Part shown: piece after piece, positions 1,715-54,646 of the stretch
Layout: every line of letters starts with the position of its first letter
How positions within the stretch are numbered: position 1 is the stretch's first letter
Assembly: GCA_043803745.1 (NCBI GenBank)
Contig: JAZDJS010000048.1
Coordinates: 4,385-68,384, forward strand
Length of the DNA: 64,000 bases
Source of the DNA: an archaeon
GTDB taxonomy: Archaea; SpSt-1190; DYHY01
Direction of reading: 5' to 3'
Position numbers and translations under genes: made by a program
The notes under the pieces: generated by a model
Told to the model about the DNA's origin: nothing
The model's input: only the letters and a program-made list of their open reading frames with translations
Databases searched by the model: none

Positions 1715-4700
1715 CTAGAACAGACCGGTCAGCCAATTCCAGAAATTCTGGAAGGCTCCGAACAGTCCAGTGAAGAATCCAGTCTGTCCGACAGGCGGCT
1801 GTTGTGGCGCTATTGTAGTGGTCGTCGGAACAGTTGTTGTAATTTCCGGCTGCTGCTCTTCTTGCCCCGGTTGTCCCTGGCTTCCTGCGCCTTTTGTGCT
1901 CTTCACGCGCGTCGAAGCAGTATAGTCGATTCCGCCAATCCTTGCTGTGAACTGAACCGTGCCGTCTGCTCCTTCAGGAACAAGCACAGTTGCAGTCAGC
2001 GTCTGTTCCTCGCCCGATTTGAGCAGTCCAGTTGAGCCAATGTCAACGCGCCATCCTTCCGGAGCGCTTGAGGTTATGTCGGTCCCGTAGTCAGCGCAGG
2101 TTCCATTCACGCTCAGGGTCACTAGGATTTCCGCGAAATCGGTGCTTGTTTCGACGTCGGCTGGCGCGGAAAGCGCAAAGTCAGGCCTGCATGTTTCTGC
2201 GGGCGCGCCTCCGCTTCCTCCGCTGCCTCTCACCGGAGGCGCTGGCGGAGAATACGCGGCTGCCGCATAGTACGAAGCCTTGGTGGCGCGGAACGTGCAG
2301 TAGCCGTCGGCAACGATGCAGGTTGTCGGGTCAAGTATCCCGTCCTGGGTCCGTCCCCCGCTCGGGGAAAGGGAACGGAATATTGAAAGCGTTCCCCCGT
2401 TGTGCGCAGGTCCGACGTAAATCGAAATCTGCATTGACGGGCTGAAATATAGTCCCTGCCCGACGATTCCCCATTGGAACGCTCCGACGGAACTGTAGTT
2501 GGCGGGCAGTCCCGAAGCGCTGAAGCTGAAAATATCCGCCGTAAAATCGCGGATATCTACGGGCAAACCGTCCCCGCGGGTTATCTCGGTTCCGTCTTCC
2601 GGATATGCATAGGAATCTCCGGAGCCTATTGCCAGGTTCGTGAAAACGGTTGTTCCCGCAACCCTGACCAGTGCAGGTCCGTCGCTTGAACCGTAGTTAT
2701 AGCAGTAGAGTTTCCCTTCAGGCGAGAAAGAGAGTTCAAAACACATCCCTCCCGGATATCCGGTGTCCGGATTCGTATATGAAAGGAATGTCACGTTGCC
2801 GTTCGACGGGTCTATCTTGTAAATCGAGCCGTCAGACGAGCTGTCCATCGCGCCAATTCCAGCTCCTAACGCAACCGAGTCCGAGCTAGACCCCTCAGTG
2901 TCGCCGCTTCCATAAAGGATTCCGCTGGGCGAGAAAGCCAAACCCTGCGTGAAGAATTCCCTTCCAGTCTGGATTTCAGCATTTTCAACCTCGCCGAAAA
3001 GCTCCTGGATTATCGCTACGAAGGTCAGCTCTCCAGTTTCCTTGTTAATTGTGTAGAGCCGCGAACCGGAGTTTTGGGGGGTGCTTGACCCCTTCACCCC
3101 ATAGAATGTTCCATCGGGCGCGAACGCTATCGCGTTCATTCCCCCATACCAGTATTCATCACCATAGGATATCTTGGCGATTTGCGAAACATCCCCGGTT
3201 GTCGTGTCGACAGTCGCGAGATAGTCGTTGCAAGGGGATGGTACGTGACCGTGCGCAGCCATGTAAAGAATTCCGTTCCCGTCGAAGGCGAACGCGTAAG
3301 GCCTGATTATTGAGGAGTCGTTTAGGTCGTTTAGCTGAACCTTGAAAGACTCCGCGCCAGTCAGCGGGTCGAGCGTGTAGAGATTGTCTTCATATCCCTT
3401 GTATATCGTTCCGTCAGGCGCCACCGCGAAGGCGGTGTTCTGAGCAGTCCATCCATTTATCGGATAGTTGTATCCGACAAGATGGCCTTGTCCTGCCGCG
3501 AAAGTCTCGAAAAGCCCGAACTCGTTAAGAAGGTCCAGGTTCTCAGTCGTAGTTTCAATCGGCTTGGCGAACGTCGTGCAAGTCTCGTCAAGGCACCAGA
3601 AGGAGAAGTCGACCTTTCCGCTGACATTGCCAATTATTTCCGCAAAGCTAGCTGTTCCCCACCAGTTGCGCCAGGCCTTGATTACTTCGCCCTCCGCTTC
3701 CGCTCCGAGAAGCTCGTTGTCAATTATCTTGTTCTTTTCGACAACTACTCCGGTCGAATCAGCGGAATAAATTCCAACATTGTTCGAATCTATCGTGTTG
3801 TCGTGGATTTTGACTTCGCTCATCTCGTAAAGGTCAATTCCGGAACGGTCGTCCTTCCGCACGCCGTTCGAACTTATCTCGTTCCCGTAAATCTCGAAAT
3901 TCGTTCCGTCGTGGAGGTCCAGGCCCTTTGCAAAGTAGGAAATCTTCACGTTCCGGAGGACGATGTTGTCGCTTTCCGAGGAATAGATTCCACTCCCTTC
4001 AGAAGAGGTCTCTTCGAACTCCGCCGATATTGAAAAGGGCTCTATTATGTCCAGCCCCTTGAACTGGAGTATGCTAAGTCCTTCTATTGTCGCATTGCCG
4101 GAATAGATGCTTATGCCGTTTTCTCCGGGAAGCACGCTGATAATCGAATTGTCAACTCCCGCGCCAATTAATCTCAAATGCTTCTGAATCAAAACCGACT
4201 CGCGCCAGGTCCCTTCAGTCAGTTCGACTGTTCCGTGTTCGTCAACGAGAGTCGTTCCTTCGCTGATTGTCGCTTTCGGCGTCACAATGACGTAGGGCGT
4301 TGAAATCCAGTAAAAAGCGGTTTCAGGATCGTCGATTTTCACCGAGGAAATCTTCGTCATCAGGTTTTCCGAGCCTTCGCTCTCAAGGGAGCAGATTTCC
4401 GCCGTGCCGCAGACAGCCCCTCCGTCGGTTCCGTAGATTGTCCCGGGCTTGGACATGATGACTGCTTCGTCATATGTCTCGTTGTCAACGACATAGACGC
4501 TCCCCGCGGGGAACATTGCGTCAACCCCGGCTTGGACTGCGTTGAACGCGTCATAGCCCCAGGTATGGCCGTCGTTGCCGCAGGGTCCCTGCTCTAAGAC
4601 GTCGGGAGTGACTTGGGTGTTCGGGTCGCAGTATTCCTTGCTCACATAGACTGAGCTAGGCCTGTTGTCGTAATGGACGAAGGAACTATCGGTTGTGTTT

Positions 4701-5714: not shown

Positions 5715-8700
5715 ATGGGGAAGTTTAGCAAGATTTTAGGACTAGTTGTAGTTTTGTCTGTTTTCGCAGCGTTTGCAGTCGGAGTCGGATTTTCGGTAAC
5801 GGAGCTGAAATATGACGACGGGACAATAGGTTATAGTGGGACTTGGCTTGATTCCGATGGCCAATACGTTGTCAAGTTCGCGCCCGCGCACAAGGGGGAA
5901 ATAACCTGGCTAGGGGCATATGTTTCAAAGGACGGCTCGGACGACGAATGGTGGGCTGGACTTTTGAATTCCGACTATTCAACACTTTCCCCATATGTAC
6001 TGAATTACATTTCGGGCTCAAGCGCCTGGAGATATGCAAGCTTCTCAACAGTCGTTTCCTCCCCATTCTATGCGGCAGTGAAACTCCAGGGATCTGATGA
6101 CGCCCGCCTAGGAAAGGACGGTTCTTCAACTTCAGGCTATAGCGAAGCCAACACAGGTTCCGGCTGGTCAGCGGTCTCAGGGAACCACATGATCCGCGCA
6201 TATATCGACTATTTCCCCGAAGCTTCAAGCATTTCCTTCTCGGAAAACCCGACTTCTGCAAGTTCAGTTACCGTTTATGCGACTTGCACCGAATACGATT
6301 CCGACGACGATGTTGACCACGCCCAAGTCCGGGTTGACGGCGGCTCCTGGGACTGGATGTCCGCTTCCGACGGGAGCTTTAATGAGAACTCCGAGAACGC
6401 ATACAAAACAATTTCGATTTCAGGTCTTTCTGATGGCGACCACACTGTCGAGGTCCGCTGCGAAGACGAGAACAGCAACTGGGGCGACCCGGTTTCGGCA
6501 ACCCTGACAAAGGGGACTTCAGACACGACCGCTCCGGTGACAACCGATGATGTTCCTTCCGGATGGAAGAACACGGATGTCACGGTGACTTTCACCTGCA
6601 CAGATTCGGGCTCTGGCTGCGACAAGGTCTATTACACAACTGACGGGAGCGAACCTGATTCCGGCTCCTCCTATGTCGATTCAGCCTCAAGCTGGCAGTT
6701 CACAATGTCCTCAGAAGGGCAATACACAATCAAATACAGGGGAGTTGACGTTGCAGGGAACTGGGAAACGACGAAGACTGCAGCAAACCTCCTTAGCATT
6801 GACAAGACCGCTCCGGGAATTTCCGGGGCTGCGACAGAAGGCCCTAACGGATTGAATGGCTGGTATGTCTCGGACGTCACGGTAAGATTCGACTGCACAG
6901 ACGACCTTTCCGGTCCGGTTGAATCCTTCTTTGACATTTTCATGACAACTGACGGAGCTGGCCAGTCGGCTTCCGGAACCTGCTACGACCTTGCGGGGAA
7001 TTCCGCAGGAACGACTGTCTCGAACATTGACATTGACAAGACAGTTCCAAGCATTTCCGGGACAGTCAGCCCCTCGCCAAACGGGGATGGCTGGAACAAG
7101 GAGGACGCTACAGTCCATTTCGACTGTTCCGACGCAACTTCCGGAATCTCCTCTTGCACATCAGACGTTCTCGTTACGACTGAAGGAGAAACTCTCGTTA
7201 CCGGGACTGCAATTGACAATGCGGGCAACTCCGCGACAGCCGACATAACGGTAAAACTTGACAAAACGGATCCGGTCACGGAAAGCTCATTTAACCCGGC
7301 AGCCCCAAACGGGCTTAACGGCTGGTATGTTACCGAACCGGAAATAACCCTGACTTTCACAGACGCAGACCCGTCCTCAGGGAAAAAATGGACGAAATAC
7401 AAGGTCAATGGCGGAGATGCTGAGACATATTCGGCTCCGTTCGCGCTTCCCGAAGGAATCCACGAACTGAAATTCCACTCAAAGGACAGGGCGGACAACA
7501 CTGAGGGCTGGAACACAATCTCGAACATAAAGGTCGACACGACTGCTCCCGAAGCGCCCGAATTCTCGGGAACTTCCCCATACTATGACGGAGACGGGGA
7601 CTTTTACGTTTCCTGGAGCTCTTCGAGCGATGCGACATCGGGAATAAGGGGCTATGCCCTATACCGGTCGCTTAACGAAGGGTCGTTCGTCCTCATGGGA
7701 GTTTTCCTCGACACAACCTACCACGAGCAAAGCCCCGGAATCGATTCAAGATACGGCTACAAGGTTTCCGCAATTGACAATGCGGGGAACGAAGGGGCTC
7801 AGAGCGAAGAGAAGGTTGTCGTAGTCGACAGGATGGACCCGACAGCGCCGCTTATGCACGACCTTCCGCCATATATCGGCGAAACAGAGGTTACTGCCTC
7901 CTGGGACCATGCGGCTGACACCGGCGTCTATCCTTCCGGAATATCGACATATGATGTCTATGTGAATAGCGCACTTGACGGCAGCACAACATATCCGGAC
8001 AACGACTATTACAAGGACTCGCTTGCGAACGAGCAGACCTACCTTTTCAAGACGAATGCCTGGGACAAATCAGACCCTGCAAACGAGGGTCCGATGTCAA
8101 ACGAGGTCGGGACAACTGTCGACCTGACTGACCCGGTCACAACCGCGATTTTCAACCCGGAGACTCCGAACGGGAACAACGGCTGGTATATCTCAAGACC
8201 GTCGATAACTCTTTCGGCAGTTGATTCGGGCTCGGGCGTCTACAAGACATATTATTGCTTCGACCAGATTGCTTCTGGAACCAGTTCCCTTGATGTTGAG
8301 ACTGAGGAGACTGAGGAGACTGGGGACAACGAGACTGTTGAAGGCGACCGCTGGCATCCGACAACAACAACGACTGTCGCACCAACACCATGCACGCCAT
8401 CCGCCGAATACACAGGACCCTTCCAGATAGACACGGAAGGGACCAACTATGTCAGGTTCTATTCGGTTGACAACGTCGGGAATGTGGAAACGGTCAATGA
8501 AGTCTCATTCAAGCAGGACCTTAACGAGCCGACGAACCAGTGGTTTTTCCTCAATGGAGGCAATTACTATTCGGACGACTCTGACGTTGGAGCGTGGTAT
8601 GATTCCGGGAAGGATACAAGCAAAGGCAGCGGACTTGACTATTGCGTAATTGACTGGGGAGACGATTCCCAGACAACTGTCTCGAAATCAAGCAACCACG

Positions 8701-10568
8701 TGCACCACACATATGCCGACGGCGAATATACCGCAAGCTATGTCTGCTATGACAATGCGGGGCACTCGAGCGAGCCTGAAACCGACGAGATTTTCGTTGA
8801 CACGGTAGACCCGGCAACATCAGCTGCGCTCAATCCGGCGGAGCCGGACGGGGACAACGGCTGGTATGTTTCTGAGGTTGAAGTCGCTCTGACTGCAACA
8901 GACCCGGAGCCAGCATCGGGAATATACCGGACCTATTACTGCGTTGACCAGATTCCAGATGGGAGCGGCGACGACGCAATTGAAGGAACTGAAGTTGACG
9001 GCGACTGGGGATGGCATCCTCCAAGGCCTTGCACTCCGAACACAAGATATACGCATCCGTTCGACGTCTCTGATGACGGGACGAACTATGTGCGGTTCTA
9101 TTCCGTTGACAAGGCTGGAAACGAGGAAGAAACCCAGACAATCTCTTTCAAGCAGGACGAGACAAACCCGGAAACCGACCACTCGGTTTCCCCAAGGAAC
9201 CCTGACGGGGACAACGAATGGTATGTCTCGGAAGTTGACGTGACTCTTGACGCTGACGATGACACATCCGGCGTCTACCAGACACTCTACTGCGTGAAGC
9301 AAAGCCTTGCCTGCGAAGAAGAGGAAGAAGGGGATGGCGAACCGGAACCAACTTGGTGGCATCCCCCTGCGCCGGAAGAGCCTGAATGCGAACCGGACAC
9401 TCTCTATGACGGGACTTTCACAGTGCTTCTAGAAGGGAAGACCTCAGTAACCTACATGTCAATTGACAATGCGGGAAACGAGGAGGAAATGCACACCTTC
9501 TCGTTCAAGCAGGACTGGACCGACCCGACAACGACAGCGACAACCGACCCGTCCGAACCGAACGGGAACAACAGCTGGTTCAACTCAACAGTTCAGTTCA
9601 ACCTTACCGCTGTTGACGGGCGTGCTGAAACGCCTTCCGAACCGGAAGGGGAAACAATCGAATCCGGCTGCTTCTGGTGGTGGTGGCAGCATCCGCCTGC
9701 GGATGGAGAAGTTCCATGCACCTCTGGAGTCCACAGAACGTACTATTGCATTGACTATGGCGCGGAAACTGGGGTTGTCGGCTGCTCAGCCGAATCCGAG
9801 GATTGCGGGGCATGCTACCCGAGGACAAGATACACGGAGCCTCTGAACCTGACCTATGAGGGACTGCAAACAATCCGGTTCTTCTCGGTTGACAAGGCCG
9901 GTAACCGCGAGGGAATCCAGGAACAGGGAATCTGGATTGACACGGTTGCCCCGGAAAGCACAATAACTGCTCCGGCGAACATGTCGAACTATTCGGCAAT
10001 CGGGACCCTTGTAATCAGGGGGAACAGCTCGGACGAGACAAGCGAAATCTTCGCAGTCGAAGTTGTTGTCAAGAACGCGGGAGGCTATGCGCTGATGAAC
10101 TGGACCGCTTCCGAAATTAACGCGACAGGGGACTGGAATTTCACCTGGACGCCTGGCGGATACGGGACCTACTACATAAGCTCGAGGGCAATCGATGCTG
10201 CGGGTAACTTTGAAACGGAGCCGGAAGAGATTGTTGTCTACTTCCCGGAGCCGCCTCTCAAGGTGCAAACCTATGGCGGGTTCTACGTAAGGACCTGTGG
10301 CAACGGGGTCTGCAACGCGAACATCGGCGAGAACGAACGGACCTGTCCGGAAGACTGCAAGGCTCCTGAAGAGGAAGAGCCTCTTGAGAACGCCGAAGAG
10401 CTAGTCAACCAAGTGACGACAACGACGGTCCAGCCGACGACAACGACGACGGTCCAACCCCAGCAAGGGACGCTTAACCCGAGACCGGGAATGCTCCCAA
10501 CAGGACGGTTCGTCCTTTTCGACCTGGCGGACCAGTTCTGGCAGTGGCTGTCTGGTTTGATGCAGTAA
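5715..10568 (+). CDS. giant secreted adhesin-like protein with at least 8 tandem NGWY-type Ig-like repeats, an FN3-like module, acidic stretches, a Cys motif, a Thr-rich stalk and a conserved aromatic C-terminal tail
   Basis: 1617 aa with an N-terminal signal peptide (MGKFSKILGLVVVLSVFAAFAVG). The unit P(N/D)G-x-NGWY-x-S-x-V-x-V-x-(F/L)-x-(C/A)-x-D-x-x-SG-(V/I) recurs at least 8 times, as in OmpL47-type / chitobiase-C Ig-like domains. It is followed by CGNGVCNANIGENERTCPEDC, a TTTTVQPTTTTT stalk and ...FVLFDLADQFWQWLSGLMQ. Confidence 0.85.
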   Translation: MGKFSKILGLVVVLSVFAAFAVGVGFSVTELKYDDGTIGYSGTWLDSDGQYVVKFAPAHKGEITWLGAYVSKDGSDDEWWAGLLNSDYSTLSPYVLNYISGSSAWRYASFSTVVSSPFYAAVKLQGSDDARLGKDGSSTSGYSEANTGSGWSAVSGNHMIRAYIDYFPEASSISFSENPTSASSVTVYATCTEYDSDDDVDHAQVRVDGGSWDWMSASDGSFNENSENAYKTISISGLSDGDHTVEVRCEDENSNWGDPVSATLTKGTSDTTAPVTTDDVPSGWKNTDVTVTFTCTDSGSGCDKVYYTTDGSEPDSGSSYVDSASSWQFTMSSEGQYTIKYRGVDVAGNWETTKTAANLLSIDKTAPGISGAATEGPNGLNGWYVSDVTVRFDCTDDLSGPVESFFDIFMTTDGAGQSASGTCYDLAGNSAGTTVSNIDIDKTVPSISGTVSPSPNGDGWNKEDATVHFDCSDATSGISSCTSDVLVTTEGETLVTGTAIDNAGNSATADITVKLDKTDPVTESSFNPAAPNGLNGWYVTEPEITLTFTDADPSSGKKWTKYKVNGGDAETYSAPFALPEGIHELKFHSKDRADNTEGWNTISNIKVDTTAPEAPEFSGTSPYYDGDGDFYVSWSSSSDATSGIRGYALYRSLNEGSFVLMGVFLDTTYHEQSPGIDSRYGYKVSAIDNAGNEGAQSEEKVVVVDRMDPTAPLMHDLPPYIGETEVTASWDHAADTGVYPSGISTYDVYVNSALDGSTTYPDNDYYKDSLANEQTYLFKTNAWDKSDPANEGPMSNEVGTTVDLTDPVTTAIFNPETPNGNNGWYISRPSITLSAVDSGSGVYKTYYCFDQIASGTSSLDVETEETEETGDNETVEGDRWHPTTTTTVAPTPCTPSAEYTGPFQIDTEGTNYVRFYSVDNVGNVETVNEVSFKQDLNEPTNQWFFLNGGNYYSDDSDVGAWYDSGKDTSKGSGLDYCVIDWGDDSQTTVSKSSNHVHHTYADGEYTASYVCYDNAGHSSEPETDEIFVDTVDPATSAALNPAEPDGDNGWYVSEVEVALTATDPEPASGIYRTYYCVDQIPDGSGDDAIEGTEVDGDWGWHPPRPCTPNTRYTHPFDVSDDGTNYVRFYSVDKAGNEEETQTISFKQDETNPETDHSVSPRNPDGDNEWYVSEVDVTLDADDDTSGVYQTLYCVKQSLACEEEEEGDGEPEPTWWHPPAPEEPECEPDTLYDGTFTVLLEGKTSVTYMSIDNAGNEEEMHTFSFKQDWTDPTTTATTDPSEPNGNNSWFNSTVQFNLTAVDGRAETPSEPEGETIESGCFWWWWQHPPADGEVPCTSGVHRTYYCIDYGAETGVVGCSAESEDCGACYPRTRYTEPLNLTYEGLQTIRFFSVDKAGNREGIQEQGIWIDTVAPESTITAPANMSNYSAIGTLVIRGNSSDETSEIFAVEVVVKNAGGYALMNWTASEINATGDWNFTWTPGGYGTYYISSRAIDAAGNFETEPEEIVVYFPEPPLKVQTYGGFYVRTCGNGVCNANIGENERTCPEDCKAPEEEEPLENAEELVNQVTTTTVQPTTTTTVQPQQGTLNPRPGMLPTGRFVLFDLADQFWQWLSGLMQ

Positions 10569-44898: not shown

Positions 44899-45329
44899 AC
44901 GTTCAAAGAAAAGATGACGGAGGTCCAGACACGTTCAGAATGGCAGCGCACCCTATTGAAAGCCTTAACCGCACCTCTCCGGCGGCATTGGCAAAAAGCA
45001 CCCTTGCCGAATACAACCAGGCAATTGGGATTCTTTCTGAAATAAGCAAGGATGCCCAGGTTCCAAAAGGCGTGAGGAAGCGGATTGAGGACATCGTAAT
45101 CAAGCTTGGGGCGGCGGATAGGTCCCTCCAGGTGAAGATAAACTCCTGCACATACCTTCTTGACGATGTCAGCAACGACCCGAGCCTTCCGCCGCACACC
45201 CGGACGTTCATCTGGCAGGTTGCCGGCCTTTTGGAGGCTACCGGGAAGCGGATTCAGCTTGTGAAGGCGGCCGCCTCTTCGGGGACTGTGTCGGGGACTG
45301 TGTCGGGGACTGTGTCGGGGACCAAGTAA
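44895..45329 (+). CDS. UPF0147-family archaeal protein with a C-terminal (SGTV)n repeat
   Basis: The core VPKGVRKRIEDIVIKL...LLDDVSNDPSLPPHTRTFIWQVAGLLE matches the UPF0147 pattern. The tail is SGTVSGTVSGTVSGTK. Confidence 0.6.
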   Translation: MNVQRKDDGGPDTFRMAAHPIESLNRTSPAALAKSTLAEYNQAIGILSEISKDAQVPKGVRKRIEDIVIKLGAADRSLQVKINSCTYLLDDVSNDPSLPPHTRTFIWQVAGLLEATGKRIQLVKAAASSGTVSGTVSGTVSGTK

Positions 45330-45442
45330 GAGGGGGTTCCGGGGGGGCTTGGAGCAACCATTCCGGAACCGCACAAGAGCATATGCGGAAAGTATTAAAT
45401 AACCGTGTTCCCTTGGGTTAGCGAGAAGGTGTTAGCATCAAG

Positions 45443-45829
45443 ATGGTAATGAAAAGAATCAAGGAATTTTTCAGCAAGGTTTCCCACGGGGGAAAGAATC
45501 CTGACCAGCAAAAGGCGCAGCCCGAGAAAAGGGAAGCGCCCGCCCTGGTCAGAATAGACGTAAAGAACGTTGAAAAGGAACCGCTCGCACTGCAGGTCGT
45601 GAAACTCCAGAATTTCTCCGATACAGAGGGGATCCTCGACTCCCTCCGGGGCGGAAAGCGCATTCTCCTGGTGAAAATCTCAGGGCTCAAGGAAAAGGAC
45701 ATGACCGAGCTCAAGCGCGCGATAAACCGGTTCAAGACCCATTGCGCGGCAACTGGCGCGGATCTGGCTGCAATTGACGAAAGCTGGATAATTCTCGTTC
45801 CTCCCGTCGTTGGTCTTGAGAGAGTCTAG
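45443..45829 (+). CDS. sepF: cell division protein SepF-like
   Basis: 128 aa. The C-terminal approximately 90 aa match the SepF core pattern (...ILLVKISGL...RAINRFKTHCAATGADLAAIDESWIILVPPVV). ftsZ is in the same window. Confidence 0.65.
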   Translation: MVMKRIKEFFSKVSHGGKNPDQQKAQPEKREAPALVRIDVKNVEKEPLALQVVKLQNFSDTEGILDSLRGGKRILLVKISGLKEKDMTELKRAINRFKTHCAATGADLAAIDESWIILVPPVVGLERV

Positions 45830-45918
45830 ATAGATCCGGGGGGCAGGAAAAGCGTTGTCCTGGCTCGAAAGCCGGATGCTCTGAAGAGCAAACTGGGGGG
45901 CGGAGCCCTGCGGTTCCG

Positions 45919-45972
45919 GACGAAAGCTGGATAATTCTCGTTCCTCCCGTCGTCGGGCTGGAAAGGGTTTGA
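45919..45972 (+). repeat. remnant second copy of the sepF 3' end (35 nt identical, then 7 synonymously recoded codons)
   Basis: 45919-45953 is identical to 45776-45810. The next 7 codons, GTC GGG CTG GAA AGG GTT TGA, encode the same VGLERV-stop as sepF's GTT GGT CTT GAG AGA GTC TAG. No start codon lies upstream in frame. Confidence 0.7.
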
Positions 45973-46033
45973 TATTCAAGCAGCCGCGATTTGAGCGAGA
46001 TAACTATTTAAGAATGAATAATTACTCGGCTGC

Positions 46034-46696
46034 ATGGCGGAACTTCGAGTATTGGAAACGACCGACTTGGAAACCTTCCAGAGCTATCTTGAAACTTGGC
46101 GCCCGCCGGAGGCGGTGCTTGTAAGCAACGGCCCTGATGCTCCGAAAACTGCGGAGTTCATCCAGCAAATTGGCGAAGGCACCCATTTTCTTTTCGCTTA
46201 CACGGCAGCGCCCGAGGAAAACCTGCTTGAAGCGCTTTCAGGCAGAGGCGTGCTGTGTGTTGAGGGAAATTTCCTTGTATACGGGGCTGACGAACGCGAG
46301 AATGTTTCCGGAACTGCACTGAAAACCCATTCAAGGTTCTTCGGAGATTCTCTTGCCATTTACCAGGTCTTCGGGCCTGTCTGCTCTGCTGAGCTTCCTG
46401 CAACTGATTGCGATGAGGTTGTTGCCGGGAACCTGAAATGGCTCGATGCGCTCAAGGTTCGCGGGATAAAAACGGCTGAAACTTTCGGCTGCGGCGGATG
46501 CTGCTCACGGGCGGTTGCGCTTGCTGATGACGTGGTTTCCTTGATTACCCAGCTTCCTCCGGAATATTCCGGGAACCCTTCCGGCTGGGCGCGCGAGGTT
46601 CTTGGCGGGGTGCAGATTCGCCCCGGAAAATACGCGGCAAAACAGGTTCCGCAGTATTGCGAGGGCGTTCCGGTCGGCGCGCTGCTCCTGCGATAA
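46034..46696 (+). CDS. hypothetical protein, paralog A of a tandem pair
   Basis: 220 aa. It shares blocks with the next gene: ...RPPEAVLV..., GDSLAIYQVFGP, PPEYSGNPSGWAREVLGGVQIRP. Confidence 0.5.
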   Translation: MAELRVLETTDLETFQSYLETWRPPEAVLVSNGPDAPKTAEFIQQIGEGTHFLFAYTAAPEENLLEALSGRGVLCVEGNFLVYGADERENVSGTALKTHSRFFGDSLAIYQVFGPVCSAELPATDCDEVVAGNLKWLDALKVRGIKTAETFGCGGCCSRAVALADDVVSLITQLPPEYSGNPSGWAREVLGGVQIRPGKYAAKQVPQYCEGVPVGALLLR

Positions 46697-46709: not shown

Positions 46710-47402
46710 ATGGTTAAAATGGGAAAGGGTTATAAGTTTGGCTTGGGCCGCACGGATATGAAGATACACCTCGTTGATGCCGGTTCAGCTGAGGGATTCA
46801 ACCAGAAAGTGAGGCAATACAAGCCGCCTGAAGTTGTTCTTGACGAAAACAGCAATTTGTATTTCGTTGCCGGGAAACCTGGAAAAAGGACGGTTTATTT
46901 CGCGCATTCAAGCGAATCCCGCATACGGACTGCTGAAGGGACCCCGGCGCACGTTGTTTCGGGCTCCCTGAAAATAGGAAAGTTCGAAAAGGCCCACAGG
47001 GCGAACGGACGGACTGTTGTCCTTGAGGGCGGGGAAGATTTGGCAATCTATCAGTTTTTCGGCCGCCCCGAAACTCCCGAAGGAAAAATCCAGCTTGGCT
47101 CGGCTGAATGGGCGCGGGCGATTGGGGAACGCGGGCTTTGCGCGTCTGACGCAATAGCATATTCGGCTGGCGAGAAACGGATTGCGGAAATCAACGCTGA
47201 TAAGAGTTGGTTCTTCCTGACCAGATTTCCGAGGGACTATCCGGGAGGGCCGAACAAATGGCTGGAGAATGTCTTGAATGTTGAAATTGTGCCTGATGCG
47301 ATGGGACATGACAACAGGCATCTGAATTACCTGGAAGCGCGCGGTCCGATAGGCGTTTATGCGGAAGTTGCGAGAGGAAAAAATCGCGCACAACCTGCCT
47401 GA
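46710..47402 (+). CDS. hypothetical protein, paralog B of a tandem pair
   Basis: 230 aa with ...KPPEVVLD..., GEDLAIYQFFGRP, PRDYPGGPNKWLENVLNVEIVP. Confidence 0.5.
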   Translation: MVKMGKGYKFGLGRTDMKIHLVDAGSAEGFNQKVRQYKPPEVVLDENSNLYFVAGKPGKRTVYFAHSSESRIRTAEGTPAHVVSGSLKIGKFEKAHRANGRTVVLEGGEDLAIYQFFGRPETPEGKIQLGSAEWARAIGERGLCASDAIAYSAGEKRIAEINADKSWFFLTRFPRDYPGGPNKWLENVLNVEIVPDAMGHDNRHLNYLEARGPIGVYAEVARGKNRAQPA

Positions 47403-47461: not shown

Positions 47462-47677
47462 ATGGCTGTTGATTCAGACAAGCTCACACGATTCGAAAAG
47501 GCAAGGGTCCTCGGCGCCCGGGCGCTGCAGGTTTCCCTTGGCGCACCAGTCCTGATAAAAACGAATGAAATAAACCCCGTCGAGATTGCCCGGCAGGAGC
47601 TTGCGAGAAGCGCGATAAAAATTCTCGTGATCCGGAAGAATTCGGACGGTTCCGAGGAAACCTTGGAGGCATCCTGA
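47462..47677 (+). CDS. rpoK: DNA-directed RNA polymerase subunit K (Rpo6/omega)
   Basis: 71 aa. TRFEKARVLGARALQVSLGAPVLI is the Rpo6 signature. Confidence 0.85.
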   Translation: MAVDSDKLTRFEKARVLGARALQVSLGAPVLIKTNEINPVEIARQELARSAIKILVIRKNSDGSEETLEAS

Positions 47678-48078: not shown

Positions 48079-48429
48079 TTATTTCAAGCCGAGTTCGGCC
48101 CGCGCGTTTGCAACTGATTCATTTATCGCCTGGATTGCGCTTGAATAGATTTCGTTCACCCGCGCTTCATATGAGCCGGGCCTTGCATACGGATACGGAA
48201 GGTCTGCTTCCGTGACCGCAATAGGTTCGAAAATTTGCGTCTGCACAACGCTCCTGACCGGGTCGGAGGAAAGCGCAACAGGCCCCGAGCCTGCGGAACC
48301 CCCCGAATATTTCGTCCTTTCGGCATATGCTTTCATTGCCGCTTTCACGTCGCCCCTGCCGCGCCTAGACCCCGACAAAGAGTCAGTTTTGTCAGCGCCT
48401 TCAATTCCAAAAAGGTCTTCGCCTCCCAT
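48079..48429 (-). CDS. hypothetical protein
   Basis: 116-aa ORF. Confidence 0.35.
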   Translation of the reverse strand: MGGEDLFGIEGADKTDSLSGSRRGRGDVKAAMKAYAERTKYSGGSAGSGPVALSSDPVRSVVQTQIFEPIAVTEADLPYPYARPGSYEARVNEIYSSAIQAINESVANARAELGLK

Positions 48430-48764
48430 TTTTCCCTTCAGTCTCCCAAGGGGACTTTTTGATATCCCCCTAAGAAAACATAACTGACCCAGGTCAATTA
48501 TAGTAATTTAGTTAGACTGTTCAGGGGTAAGACCTTAAAAGTACAACCAGGAAAAAGAAGCTGAAAATTCAGATTTCAATCTCTTATTGGGTCAATCTGA
48601 TGTGTTTGCTAGACTATGAAGTTTGTCCGTGCGTTTCGATTGTTCCAGGTCGAAAAAACTGAATTCCTTCCTCATTCCTGCCAAAGGAGGAATAACAAAA
48701 AGGAGGTTTTGGCCCAATTTAAAAACAAACAATTATATGTTAGTTGGCCCATATTAGGTAAATT

Positions 48765-49133
48765 ATGGCAGCGACGGATGAAAATGTTTTTGCAGTTCTT
48801 GATTACCTGGGGCTTACGACACACAAGGCCGAATATCAGAAAGTTGCCCAGGCGCTCTCATATATCAAGCGCACGTTCAAGGTCAAGGAAGAATTCAAGC
48901 TGAATCAGATAATGAGGCCCCTTGCGGTTGAGCAGAACAACAGGAAATGGCTCCGGACGCTTCTGTCGAAAATGGTTGAGCGGGGATATCTTTACAGGCC
49001 GTCATCGAAGAAATATGCAAAGGCATACGACTCTTTCGCAAACTGGCTCTCGGTTGCGCACGGGAAAATAGACCAGATTGAGAACTCCGACCCGCAGCCT
49101 GCCGCGGCTGCGCCCCAGCAAGTTGTCCAATGA
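48765..49133 (+). CDS. hypothetical protein (possible winged-helix DNA-binding)
   Basis: 122 aa, preceded by a roughly 290-bp AT-rich region. Confidence 0.4.
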   Translation: MAATDENVFAVLDYLGLTTHKAEYQKVAQALSYIKRTFKVKEEFKLNQIMRPLAVEQNNRKWLRTLLSKMVERGYLYRPSSKKYAKAYDSFANWLSVAHGKIDQIENSDPQPAAAAPQQVVQ

Positions 49134-51877: not shown

Positions 51878-53923
51878 ATGTTGTGGTGTAGGGAAAAGAT
51901 GAAAGTGAAACATTTTGGCGCGCTTTTGATTGCCTGCCTTGCCTTGCTTCTTTCGGGCTGCACGATTGGACCCGACCCGGACGGGGGCGGGATTTCCTTT
52001 CTCCTGACTCTCCAGGACCCCGTTGCAACGCTTGGAAGCGGGGAAGTCTTCACTCTCAAGGGCCTTGGCGCGAACTCCTCGAATCTTTACGCAACAATAA
52101 AATCGGACGGAGCAACGAATTCGTATTCATTTTCATGCATGAACTCGTCCGAAACAGTTGGCCTTCTGAAGGTTTCGGTCAGGAACTGCACAAGGGTTTC
52201 CGAAACGAACGGGTATGCAGTCGTTTCCCTTTTCAAGCTTGAAAAAACTGAATCGGCTCCCGATGAAGCAACTCCGGCCACGATAGACCCGTTCACGACC
52301 ATACTGACGACGGCCCCGGGTCCGGTTCCTCCAACTCAACCCGAAGAATTTCCCGGCCAGGAAACCCCTGAAACTATAGACACCCTTCCGACATCTTCGA
52401 TAGCAATGACGACGGCCCCGGGTGCGGCCCCGGGTGCGGCTCCGCCGGCCCCGGAAACTGTCAGAAGCAACTGCAATTCCGACCCGGAATTCGAAAGGAT
52501 TTGCTCGAACGTTGGAATGTCAACCGAGGGTTTCTCGGAAAACCGGACGCTTCACTGCACGGAGGGCTATTCCTGCTGGTTCAGGAAACGGGAAGTTGTC
52601 CCGGGTGTGAATGAGACTGAAAGCGAGACGCGGGTCACTACGGTCACGATAGACACTTCTTCCTCAACGACAATAACGACGACGGCTCCCGGTGCGGTTC
52701 CCGCTGTTGTTATTCAGAATGCGCCAAGTTGCGTTTCCGATTATGAATACTACCGGGCTTGCTCGTACCGGAATTCCACCAACCGGAGCCTGATAAACCT
52801 GTCGGGGGAAATCGGTCTGCCGGCTGCATTCAACCTGTCTGCAATGGTCTTTCTAAGCAACGATTCAATCGGGTGCGAAGGCGATAACCGGGTTTGCTGG
52901 ACCTACAAGCTCGGCACGTTCAATTTGAGCATAGCGGCTAAGCGAGGAGGCCTGACAGGTGAATGCATTGAAAACATTTCTTTCAAGGTCTGGAACGAAA
53001 CCTGGTCTGAAGAAGGGTTCCTGCCGGAGTCGTACGTTATTGTCGGAAAAGCGCGGGTACATGAGCTCAAGCGCATATATTTCAGAAATCTTGCCCCGGG
53101 AACTTACAGCTATTCGATAAGGGCTCCCGGTTATCCCGAGGCCTATTCGAACATCACCAGCAAAGCTTCTCCCTACAACCGGGACCGTTCAATCGTCTGG
53201 ATTATGGAACCTCTTGAGCTGAAGACCGTTCCAGTCACCTTCCACTTCACAGCGAAACAATGGTATGAATTCGGCGCGCGTTACTGGGACCTTGACAACG
53301 GCGAGATTGTCCTTGTCAACGAAACAAGGGGGCTCCGCTATTCCGAGAAAACGAACTCAACGGGATATGTCGTGCTTGAACTGATTCCCGCGAAATACGA
53401 CCTCACTGCAACCTGGAGGAACGCAACAATGAACGGAAAAATTAACGATATCCCGTTGAGTTCGAACGGAACAAATCCCCGTAGTTTCCAGTTCGATCTC
53501 AGCACTGCGCTAGTCTGCGGGCCGGGACTGAATCCGGTGTTAGTAGAGGGCTGCTTCAGGGAAAACATGAGCCTGCAGGGATACCTCCCTTCGACTTTGA
53601 AATGCGCGGAGGGCTATTCCTGTTTCTTTCGGTATAAGACCTGTGAAGAGTATTCCGACGGAATGCAGGACTTTGTGTGCTCGGGGGAAAACCTGACCGG
53701 CCAAGGATACGCACTGAAGGACAAGTGGTCTACCTACAGGGATAAAGGGGTCTGCCCGGAAGGGCAATCCTGCTGGAGAATATATCATCCCTGCGAGACA
53801 TTCAACAACTCCAGAGCTGACTACCGCTGTTCCGCCGAGAACTTTACAAGCCAGGGATACCAGAACCTGAGCGCATTCCCCTGCCCGACCGGACAGATAT
53901 GCTGGAGAAAGTTTTCGAGGTGA
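51878..53923 (+). CDS. secreted Cys-repeat putative lipoprotein with Thr/Pro-rich linkers
   Basis: 681 aa. The signal peptide ends in a lipobox-like LLSGC. TTAPGxxP linkers occur three times. There are at least 5 copies of a roughly 40-aa module ending C-x-(E/T)-G-(Y/Q)-S-C-(W/F)-(F/R)-(R/K), and many N-x-S/T sequons. Confidence 0.7.
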   Translation: MLWCREKMKVKHFGALLIACLALLLSGCTIGPDPDGGGISFLLTLQDPVATLGSGEVFTLKGLGANSSNLYATIKSDGATNSYSFSCMNSSETVGLLKVSVRNCTRVSETNGYAVVSLFKLEKTESAPDEATPATIDPFTTILTTAPGPVPPTQPEEFPGQETPETIDTLPTSSIAMTTAPGAAPGAAPPAPETVRSNCNSDPEFERICSNVGMSTEGFSENRTLHCTEGYSCWFRKREVVPGVNETESETRVTTVTIDTSSSTTITTTAPGAVPAVVIQNAPSCVSDYEYYRACSYRNSTNRSLINLSGEIGLPAAFNLSAMVFLSNDSIGCEGDNRVCWTYKLGTFNLSIAAKRGGLTGECIENISFKVWNETWSEEGFLPESYVIVGKARVHELKRIYFRNLAPGTYSYSIRAPGYPEAYSNITSKASPYNRDRSIVWIMEPLELKTVPVTFHFTAKQWYEFGARYWDLDNGEIVLVNETRGLRYSEKTNSTGYVVLELIPAKYDLTATWRNATMNGKINDIPLSSNGTNPRSFQFDLSTALVCGPGLNPVLVEGCFRENMSLQGYLPSTLKCAEGYSCFFRYKTCEEYSDGMQDFVCSGENLTGQGYALKDKWSTYRDKGVCPEGQSCWRIYHPCETFNNSRADYRCSAENFTSQGYQNLSAFPCPTGQICWRKFSR

Positions 53924-54646
53924 GTTTTTTCTTCTTCTTCTTCTTGCCGGACGGCTTAAGTCCGCTTTCCCACACAGTCCCAGTGCCGGGCTAGTCAAAT
54001 CTGGTGTCGGCACGGGTCCGGCTTTTTCCGGACAATTTTCAGGAAAAATTGGCGGCCTATTCCCTTTGGGTTTCACATTCTCGAGGTCGGGTAATTCCAG
54101 AATATTATCGCCGACCTTGATCCGGATTTTTCCGGACAAATATCCGCCATGCGTTTGGCGGACGGCCTCAGGCCCGCTTTCCCACACATTCCAATTTTCA
54201 GGAAAGCGAGCTTTTCGGCCTGTGTCCCGTCACACTAACGCTCCCCGATCCTCCTAACGTGATTAACGATACACTCTGTCCTGGGGAGTATCCCTCGTTG
54301 CGGGAGGGATTCCCGACAGGCCGGCTTAAAAACAGTTTCCCCTCGGGGTTCCCTCGGGGTTCCCTCGGGGTTCCCCTGCCTCCTGGTTTTACCGGGCGTT
54401 ATCTCAGTTTTTCCTCTTGAACTACCGCGGGCTAAAAAAGCCCGCGGATTTCGATGCTGCAGCATTGATCAAGTAACTCTTGACTCGGTAATAGGCGGGC
54501 TAATTCGCCCGCAATCATAGTGTGAAATCTGGAGCGCGCGTCATCCTCAGATGATCCAGCATCGGCTGGATATTTCCGCCCTCAAAGGGCAGAGTTTTGC
54601 GCGCGAAAGAATAAAAGTTAAATAGTGACCTTATTTCCATGGCAGA
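53924..54646. repeat. repeat-rich 720-bp intergenic region
   Basis: CCGCTTTCCCACACA and TTTTCCGGACAA / TTTTCAGGAAA modules each occur twice. There is a 3x tandem CCCTCGGGGTT, plus palindromes CGCGGGCTAAAAAAGCCCGCGG and ATGCTGCAGCAT. Confidence 0.6.

Follow-up and report, generated by a model that had tools for sequence, protein, structure and literature searches.

Why should the end of a cell-division gene be present twice within a short distance, with the second version rewritten at every codon of its tail but still specifying the same amino acids? The question is raised by sepF in a stretch of 64,000 nucleotides (nt; 64 kb) of archaeal DNA (assembly GCA_043803745.1, contig JAZDJS010000048.1), which in its entirety is called the window here. 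An initial annotation, made from the sequence alone, had described the recurrence of the sepF 3′ end and had proposed that the downstream copy is the relic of a second sepF-like gene or of a replaced allele. Comparison of the locus with those of related archaea leads us to the following answer, in which we place about as much trust as doubt. The downstream copy (copy 2) would be an old tandem duplicate of the gene end and the 3′ untranslated region (UTR); its first part would have been homogenised with the live gene, and its tail would come from a working gene end. This was probably the native end of sepF, which would have lost its place when recombination put in the present proximal tail.

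The two copies and their tails

SepF of the window is the product of the open reading frame (ORF) at 45443-45829 on the + strand; it matches PF04472 with 31.9 bits against a cut-off of 27 over residues 52-123, and is 100% identical to the NCBI protein 'MAG: cell division protein SepF [archaeon]' (MAG, metagenome-assembled genome). The features of the locus are as follows.

45443..45829, + strand: sepF coding sequence, 128 amino acids (aa), stop codon TAG, identified from the ORF list, Pfam PF04472 and the NCBI identity
45776..45810, + strand: core of copy 1, codons D112-V123, the first 35 nt of the repeat, within live sepF
45811..45829, + strand: tail 1, (GT)T GGT CTT GAG AGA GTC TAG, the functional end of sepF
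45830..45918, + strand: spacer, 89 nt, presumed 3′ UTR of sepF, with no oligo-T run
45878..45889, + strand: hairpin B, GCTC TGAA GAGC
45891..45915, + strand: hairpin C, AACTGGGGGGC GGA GCCCTGCGGTT, ten pairs and one G.G mismatch, ending 3 nt before copy 2
45919..45953, + strand: core of copy 2, the same letters as 45776-45810
45954..45972, + strand: tail 2, (GT)C GGG CTG GAA AGG GTT TGA, the same peptide and a stop, every codon recoded

The final 17 codons of sepF and its stop (45776-45829) recur at 45919-45972, 143 nt from start to start. A repeat finder reported 45776-45825 and 45919-45968 as a two-copy direct repeat with a spacing of 143 and 90% identity, and the claim of a duplicated 3′ end with a synonymous-only tail was also borne out by shuffles and by translation. 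Over the first 35 nt the copies agree exactly. Beyond this point copy 1 reads GTT GGT CTT GAG AGA GTC TAG and copy 2 reads GTC GGG CTG GAA AGG GTT TGA, so that all six sense codons and the stop differ between the tails. Six of the eight differing bases are third positions of sense codons, and the other two lie within the stop codon (TAG to TGA); 100% of the changes in sense codons are synonymous, and the peptide of both copies is DESWIILVPPVVGLERV, followed by a stop. That this is no random repeat, as had also been claimed, is evident from the 26 nt with which it begins: they occur exactly twice in the 64 kb, where 0 occurrences are expected (100 shuffles). No further copy of the sepF core was found within the window, and among the 60 complete genes of the window sepF alone has its end repeated downstream (score 76; runner-up 25).

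How strongly do the tails point to coding selection? If a copy free of constraint had contributed half of the differences, the probability that peptide and stop stay unchanged would be 0.0026 for the window pair, and 0.0009 under the same assumption for the corresponding pair at L039, the locus of a related lineage (loci of relatives are given L numbers here). Since the changes are purely synonymous and the probability of this arising by chance is low, the divergence of the last 19 nt was not free of constraint, in agreement with the earlier view that both copies diverged under coding selection. On these statistics, each of the tails either serves as a functional end of sepF or is derived from one.

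In its present place, copy 2 does not have the features of an ordinary coding sequence. Its reading frame is closed by TGA at 45817-45819 and thereafter contains no ATG, GTG or TTG, and an independent small ORF at copy 2 was rejected for lack of a start codon behind that stop. Judged from its reading frames, copy 2 is untranslated by any ordinary route.

The arrangement in related lineages

We collected 13 SepF homologues, all with PF04472, at loci from independent assemblies (ENA, Logan, JGI and NCBI), with a single collection scan each for genomes and metagenomes; the comparison comprises six lineages, the window and five relatives, and offers few informative sites in the tails. The suggestion that relatives might lack a second copy, named at the outset as an outcome that would speak against the claim, came out the opposite way: five related lineages of uncultivated archaea, with SepF proteins 60-75% identical, carry a second sepF tail. 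Their copies all begin at codon D112, directly behind the hairpin C motif. In contrast, neither the hairpin motif nor a second copy was found in distant relatives (SepF identity of 55% or less). State of preservation varies among the relatives as follows.

L039: 23 identical nt, then 7 recoded codons and the stop, with 0 non-synonymous changes; a lineage-specific Thr is retained
L038: 36 nt at 89% identity, a 38-nt insertion, then GGG CTG GAA AGA GTC TAG
L005: decayed, with the lineage's own Met codon still present
L001, L002 and L026: three assemblies with the same sequence, 21 nt left
L003 and L004: almost gone and barely recognisable, with the hairpins retained

Judged by this comparison, the duplication is neither private nor recent to the genome of the window, since the same junction occurs in five related lineages. 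Since the junction is shared by independent assemblies, a private accident is excluded and an artefact of assembly is unlikely. The junction may thus mark an old leftover copy of the gene end that is still recombining, a view for which the case seems to us evenly poised.

Within the conserved C-terminal half of sepF, about 47% of codons differ synonymously between lineages. Against this background, the synonymous differences between the two copies of the window are distributed very unevenly by codon, 0/11 for core against core and 7/7 for tail against tail, and from the sharpness of this break we infer a recombination breakpoint at 45810/45811 (equivalently 45953/45954). The copy of each lineage resembles the sepF of its own genome, and the position and length of the matching patch vary. 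In the window, L039 and L038 the cores are alike within the genome, yet between lineages they differ at 3-13 of 35 positions. Such lineage-specific likeness within genomes points to short-patch gene conversion or crossover, and the comparison indicates that the first 35 nt are identical through homogenisation or crossover in this lineage and not through slow divergence. Head-to-tail units that resemble each other more closely inside one genome than across genomes are also what defines a tandem repeat under concerted evolution, of which the thermosome tails described below are the nearest example, with units that likewise run from inside the gene to just past a hairpin. Simple concerted evolution, however, yields copies that are identical or randomly decayed, unlike the recoding of every codon with a constant peptide seen here.

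Which of the two tails is the native one can be addressed by codon usage, by nearness to the tails of the relatives and by the flanking sequence. A comparison of the codon usage of the two tails, recommended in the initial annotation, found tail 2 to be composed of codons common in this genome (GGG 32%, AGG 31%, stop TGA 33/56), whereas tail 1 contains rare ones (GGT 7%, AGA 11%) and the rarest stop (TAG, 11/56); the codon log-likelihoods are -6.39 for tail 2 and -8.55 for tail 1. From the functional tails of L038, L003 and L039, tail 2 differs at 3/19 positions and tail 1 at 6-8/19 (8 in the case of L038). The third line is the sequence immediately behind copy 2:

45973..45995, + strand: flank behind copy 2, TATTCAAGCAGCCGCGATTTGAG, resembling the flank after the live sepF stop in L038 (TATTCGCGCAACCAATTTTCAGG) and in L003

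The resemblance, weak and judged by eye, extends to about 14-15 of 23 positions. Copy 1, for its part, has just 8 unrelated bases between its stop and the conserved spacer. Since codon usage, nearness to the relatives' tails and flank agree, the downstream copy is probably the native, ancestral end and the proximal tail the one that was replaced, although each of the three lines is weak. The alignment of homologous loci proposed earlier thus weakly favours the downstream copy as ancestral and gave no sign of a second sepF paralog. With respect to the two origins first considered for copy 2, a replaced allele, or recombination at the gene end, comes near to our best reading, whereas nothing points to another complete sepF gene. 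A division of the tails into two clean types (alpha and beta) with a swap between lineages was also considered and set aside, there being too few sites and tail 1 being a marginal outlier.

As a unit, the repeat begins at codon D112, includes the stop and the 3′ UTR, and ends 3 nt beyond the base of hairpin C. One could picture the following course of events. An ancestor of the clade would have duplicated the unit from D112 to the 3′ UTR in tandem; because the duplication began inside the gene and ended beyond it, the gene remained intact, and the duplication could persist. Short-patch gene conversion with the live gene would refresh part of the copy, in the window its first 35 nt, as the lineage-specific identity indicates, and the last 19 nt would, on the statistics given above, descend from a functional sepF end. 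The proximal tail and the 8 nt past its stop would have been imported as a patch from another functional allele, by a crossover at the 35/36 boundary. In the window and, independently, in L039, one tail would have been exchanged in this way, bringing two long-separated functional tails side by side, and the region as a whole would be a recombination hotspot that gains new genes. Copy 2 would then be an untranslated partial pseudo-copy, part of a tail repeat which a small uncultivated archaeal clade has conserved, a description on which our judgement is equally divided; the copy itself is probably without function, and the hairpins in front of it are probably functional. If this is correct, the locus would show, as a clean natural example from archaea, gene conversion and the displacement of a gene end in an essential gene of cell division, and would mark a hotspot of lineage-specific gene gain between conserved neighbours.

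Several observations weigh against this account. Only 6 codons and a flank of 23 nt underlie the distinction between native and imported tail, the outlying position of tail 1 is marginal (binomial p of about 0.045 by our own arithmetic), and a donor allele for the replaced tail was not identified. Parts of the spacer can be weakly aligned to the sepF coding sequence and to the core (p of about 0.01-0.03), a similarity that hints at a more complex history involving three units. The distal tail has decayed in four lineages and remains pristine in the window and in L039; with an old junction, two pristine cases of tail 2 require either two separate recent exchanges or selection. With conserved hairpins directly in front of the copy, the module as a whole may also have a function. 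Lastly, the window comes from a metagenome-assembled genome, and look-ups of the exact protein gave no second assembly, a point in favour of an artefact.

The spacer hairpins and alternative explanations

The spacer, put at 90 bp in the initial annotation, measures 89 nt, and the notion that it might be ordinary intervening DNA did not hold up, as it contains a conserved double hairpin. The two-hairpin fold is common to the window, L038, L039 and L003, with z-scores of -1.0 to -2.9. In hairpin B the stem letters change and pairing is kept, three relatives having G-C as the third pair where the window has C-G. Over five lineages, 16 columns of hairpin C are invariant, and a consensus fold was obtained; between L001 and L003 hairpin C is identical at 26/28 positions, compared with about half in the adjoining spacer. 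In L039 the inner stem of hairpin C has been swapped to CTTTTC/GAAAAG, giving 5 compensatory pairs, and the outer AAC/GTT stem and the position of the mismatch have been retained. Since MAFFT misaligned hairpin C when L039 was included, a manual register was used for counting these pairs. G-T wobbles in the hairpins fit the + strand only, which argues for an RNA in the sense of sepF. The double hairpin is thus probably, and most simply, a structure at the 3′ end of the sepF mRNA, and hairpins B and C make this conserved 3′ UTR a candidate for an mRNA-end or regulatory element, possibly one that has not been described. Rfam 15 gave 0 matches at gathering score in the 64 kb, and at E <= 10 within 45700-46100 one 12-bit chance match only; the fold of the whole region 45770-45990 is not exceptional (z = -0.76). 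Hairpin C is present once in the 64 kb, and the core has no further copies there, so that an array of clustered regularly interspaced short palindromic repeats (CRISPR) or a dispersed repeat of the type of repetitive extragenic palindromes (REP) or miniature inverted-repeat transposable elements (MITE) was discarded.

The end of hairpin C together with the first 2 nt of copy 2 (45909-45920) has a distant partner:

45362..45373, + strand: TCCGGAACCGCA, the perfect inverted-repeat counterpart of 45909-45920, upstream of the sepF promoter

This perfect 12-nt inverted repeat, which brackets sepF and its promoter, was reached in 0/300 shuffles. L005 has a different, perfect inverted repeat of 14 nt (about 2820-2833 and about 3545-3558), pairing a site 181 nt upstream of sepF with the tail of copy 2. 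Neither of the two is conserved in other lineages, and the upstream intergenic region shows no significant similarity to the spacer. Long-range 5′-3′ pairing around sepF was therefore rejected, the 12-nt repeat being significant in the window and absent from the relatives.

Could the copy itself be maintained? A module made of the two hairpins and a sense sepF end may be kept by selection, either as a spare coding-competent tail or as a structured RNA that mirrors the gene, but we regard this as doubtful. Were it so, a sequence that is not translated would, unusually, be kept compatible with a protein.

The spare tail, taken by itself, is the main rival of our reading and likewise no more than a tentative proposal. 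According to it, recombination in the core, by a 143-nt deletion or by conversion from copy 2 to copy 1, keeps fusing tail 2 to the essential gene, or else single-copy haplotypes coexist and recombine with the two-copy form; chromosomes with a damaged tail 2 lose those recombinant descendants, and selection acts at second order. The junction common to all six lineages, and hence the age of the copy, speaks for it, as does a tail 2 that despite this age carries no non-synonymous change in two lineages. In L039, moreover, the non-coding flanks of the two units are heavily diverged and contain indels, whereas the tails have changed synonymously only, which favours the spare tail somewhat, and the copies still exchange sequence, as their identity in patches peculiar to each lineage shows. 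Silent cassettes of the pilS type are comparable, being promoterless 3′ fragments near an expressed gene that stay coding-competent through copying into that gene; they vary in amino acids, however, and serve antigenic variation, in contrast to the invariant peptide found at this locus. Prophage e14 of Escherichia coli illustrates that a tail once displaced can regain function: its excision, as described in PMC13626634, joins icd to icdC, and the enzyme encoded by the fusion works. On the other hand, the copy is decayed or mostly lost in 4/6 lineages, the selection coefficient would merely equal the recombination rate, and exchange frequent enough for selection should also wipe out the synonymous differences between the tails. 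No single-copy haplotype of the window species was seen.

We find it unlikely that the nucleotide sequence itself is what is kept, as a functional RNA module in which hairpins B and C and the sense sepF end form a 3′ UTR element or a processed small RNA, for instance a decoy or sponge or a guide-like segment. The conserved hairpin structure, with its compensatory changes and its G-U pairs in the sense orientation, is consistent with such a role, and so is the stretch identical to the gene, which always lies directly behind hairpin C and measures 35, 23, 19 and 15 nt in four lineages; L001 retains 21 nt only, and L003 has a T6 run about 20 nt behind the hairpin. A role at the nucleotide level would, however, leave the conserved peptide of the non-identical tail unexplained, and the copy has decayed in L005 and L003 though the hairpins were kept. 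The absence of a match to an Rfam family, of a nuclease or partner gene nearby and of a second occurrence in the 64 kb also argues against it.

The geometry of the locus recalls the scar of an integrative element. In E. coli K-12, icd and icdC flank the e14 prophage (Hill et al. 1989, as described in PMC13626634). As far as that description goes, the likeness is close: the 3′ end of a housekeeping gene is present twice, the proximal end completing the gene and the distal one being a pseudogene for nearly the same peptide, and recombination between the copies gives a working chimeric gene (PMC13626634). By analogy, an element would have brought tail 1, the 35 nt would be the core of an attachment (att) site, and copy 2 the displaced attR, the body of the element having been deleted or being a miniature, non-autonomous one. 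The identical core, the recoded proximal tail and the native distal tail with its flank do fit an attL/attR pair, in which an identical core is followed by a diverged replacement end. But e14 as described there is a 15-kb element with its own recombinase that integrated once in one lineage, whereas here 89 nt with two hairpins and no recombinase are shared by an archaeal clade. We consider an att scar quite improbable. The 89 nt between the copies hold two hairpins conserved in every lineage, including L003/L004, where little of the second copy is left; no recombinase or mobile-element gene was found among the neighbours tested with Pfam, PHROG and NCBIfam (prefoldin, DHH, UPF0147, rpoK and ORFs without a family). 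Nor was a free attP element found: a degenerate pattern of the sepF core had 0 matches in the viral contigs of IMG/VR, plasmid collections not having been searched, and two IMG/VR matches to a hairpin C pattern were unrelated GC hairpins. In addition, the extent of identity varies by lineage, like conversion patches and unlike a fixed core, and the distal tail of an ancient scar should have decayed.

Displaced gene ends also occur in bacterial toxin systems. C-terminal displacement and orphaned 3′ regions are reportedly treated by Jackson et al. 2009 and Koskiniemi et al. 2014. In the account of PMC5361080 (section 13), the orphaned 3′ regions of rhs, contact-dependent inhibition (CDI) and type VI secretion system (T6SS) effector loci arise by homology-facilitated illegitimate recombination. 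The arrangement described there is similar to ours, an intact gene being followed by promoterless 3′ fragments that start with homology to the gene and lie beside variable genes, and such fragments can recombine back into the main gene (PMC5361080). Copy 2 is likewise a promoterless fragment beside variable genes. The tips of the toxin loci, in that account, encode different toxins and are kept for diversity, whereas here both tails encode the same 17 residues, DESWIILVPPVVGLERV; and the unit here is one of about 140 nt, in archaea, at a housekeeping gene of cell division.

An assembly artefact, with two strains joined at a shared 35-mer or a mis-join within the metagenome-assembled genome, is very improbable. 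An exact 35-nt repeat exceeds the smallest k-mers of iterative assemblers, and a chimera at a shared k-mer would indeed give a pattern of identity followed by synonymous differences. Yet real reads must contain the junction of hairpin C with the core, and the arrangement is found again in five other lineages, the assemblies of which come from four pipelines. L039 shows the pattern with only 23 identical nt, fewer than the Logan k-mer, which we take to be 31. Identity over 35 nt between species differing at about 47% of codons is itself improbable (about 0.53^11).

Least credible of all is translation of copy 2 as a C-terminal extension of SepF, through read-through or frameshifting. In L039 (509-688) copy 2 follows the TGA stop in the same frame, with 41 open codons between them, and read-through there would, if true, duplicate the C-terminal strand of SepF; an open stretch of this length is expected by chance in about 14% of cases, and chance is probably what it is. 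In the window, the frame of copy 2 is open from 45820, and by inspection GAGAG at 45818-45822 would permit +2 re-pairing. However, a slippery heptamer is absent, the sepF frame read past TAG meets TAA at 45932-45934, inside copy 2, and the peptides of the linker are not conserved. The offset between the copies modulo 3 also varies by lineage (2, 0 and 1), so that no single scheme of read-through or frameshifting fits.

In diversity-generating retroelements (DGRs), a near-identical copy of the last 50-130 nt or so of a gene (template repeat TR and variable repeat VR) lies shortly downstream, and a hairpin is found behind the gene end. A second gene-end copy shortly downstream and a hairpin are present here too, but no reverse transcriptase domain was found in six neighbouring products scanned with Pfam. 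Adenines account for 2/8 differences whichever copy is taken as template, and the peptide is unchanged, nothing being diversified. DGRs, integron attC sites, CRISPR, bulge-helix-bulge (BHB) introns and C/D-box small RNAs (sRNAs) were dismissed, as their defining features were not found by inspection, Pfam and pattern searches.

Another repeated gene end and the variable neighbourhood

A second gene of the window shows a repeated tail. The window starts inside a thermosome-like (Cpn60/TCP1) gene, the last 12 codons of which, with their flank (74-125), are repeated at 171-222 with a period of 97; a third, partial copy lies near 250-266. In L042, from the lineage of L001, the end of the homologous gene and a hairpin form two exact 41-nt units (1464-1586), and a third, partial unit runs into the start of a DUF1801 gene and supplies its called ATG. 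In L045, from the lineage of L003, two exact 26-nt copies follow each other with a period of 41 (1749-1815). The copies are identical within each genome, L042 and L045 differing at five positions, and in both loci the stop codon lies within a hairpin of 9 bp, in which the two lineages differ by one compensatory change. Lineage-specific genes follow these repeats. An automatic scan of 384 gene ends over all loci flagged only the thermosome-tail repeats; it missed the sepF copies of the relatives because the ORF picker had chosen antisense ORFs there. No third gene with a repeated tail was found among the 384 gene ends. The sepF and thermosome-like tails, both beside variable genes, suggest a recurrent recombination route for gene gain. 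If, moreover, the hairpin module with its sepF end were kept by selection, which we regard as doubtful, the two cases would hint at a general habit of these small archaeal genomes, the marking of conserved gene ends and their use as landing pads for new genes.

Gene order in the relatives is UPF0147, sepF, rpoK, S17e, the S17e neighbour being known solely from Pfam labels on their loci. In the window, two genes lie between the tail repeat and rpoK:

46034-46696 and 46710-47402, + strand: paralogous ORF pair, 220 and 230 aa, inserted between the tail repeat and rpoK
47462..47677, + strand: rpoK (Rpb6), Pfam RNA_pol_Rpb6, the conserved right-hand neighbour, with synteny in L001-L003

The two inserted ORFs match each other in BLASTP with 24% identity (E = 4e-12) and have no Pfam, PHROG or NCBIfam match; the sole match of the first among 5.8 billion proteins is itself. 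The interval between tail repeat and rpoK holds unrelated ORFs in L001, L038 and L005 and nothing in L003. No homology was found among the inserts of different lineages, the GC content of the window insert is not deviant, and no repeat marks the right-hand end of the inserts. The sepF tail repeat thus adjoins a recombination-active variable region, with different genes behind it in most lineages.

Some further repeats and compositional features were noted in the window. The UPF0147 gene upstream of sepF ends (45281-45320) in a perfect 12-nt tandem repeat, GGGGACTGTGTC, with three full units and a partial one, which encodes SGTV SGTV SGTV and is a slippage-type repeat at a gene 3′ end. At 48300-48900 the GC content falls to 0.38-0.45, compared with about 0.53-0.58 around it. 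Directly behind an ORF ending at 53923, short direct repeats of 24-26 nt form two pairs that interleave (53955-54192); their identity is 85-88%, and the spacings are 212 and 104. Finally, a 1617-aa ORF at 5715-10568 contains several diverged families of internal repeats, with spacings of 357, 678 and 861 nt, and probably encodes a repetitive surface protein.

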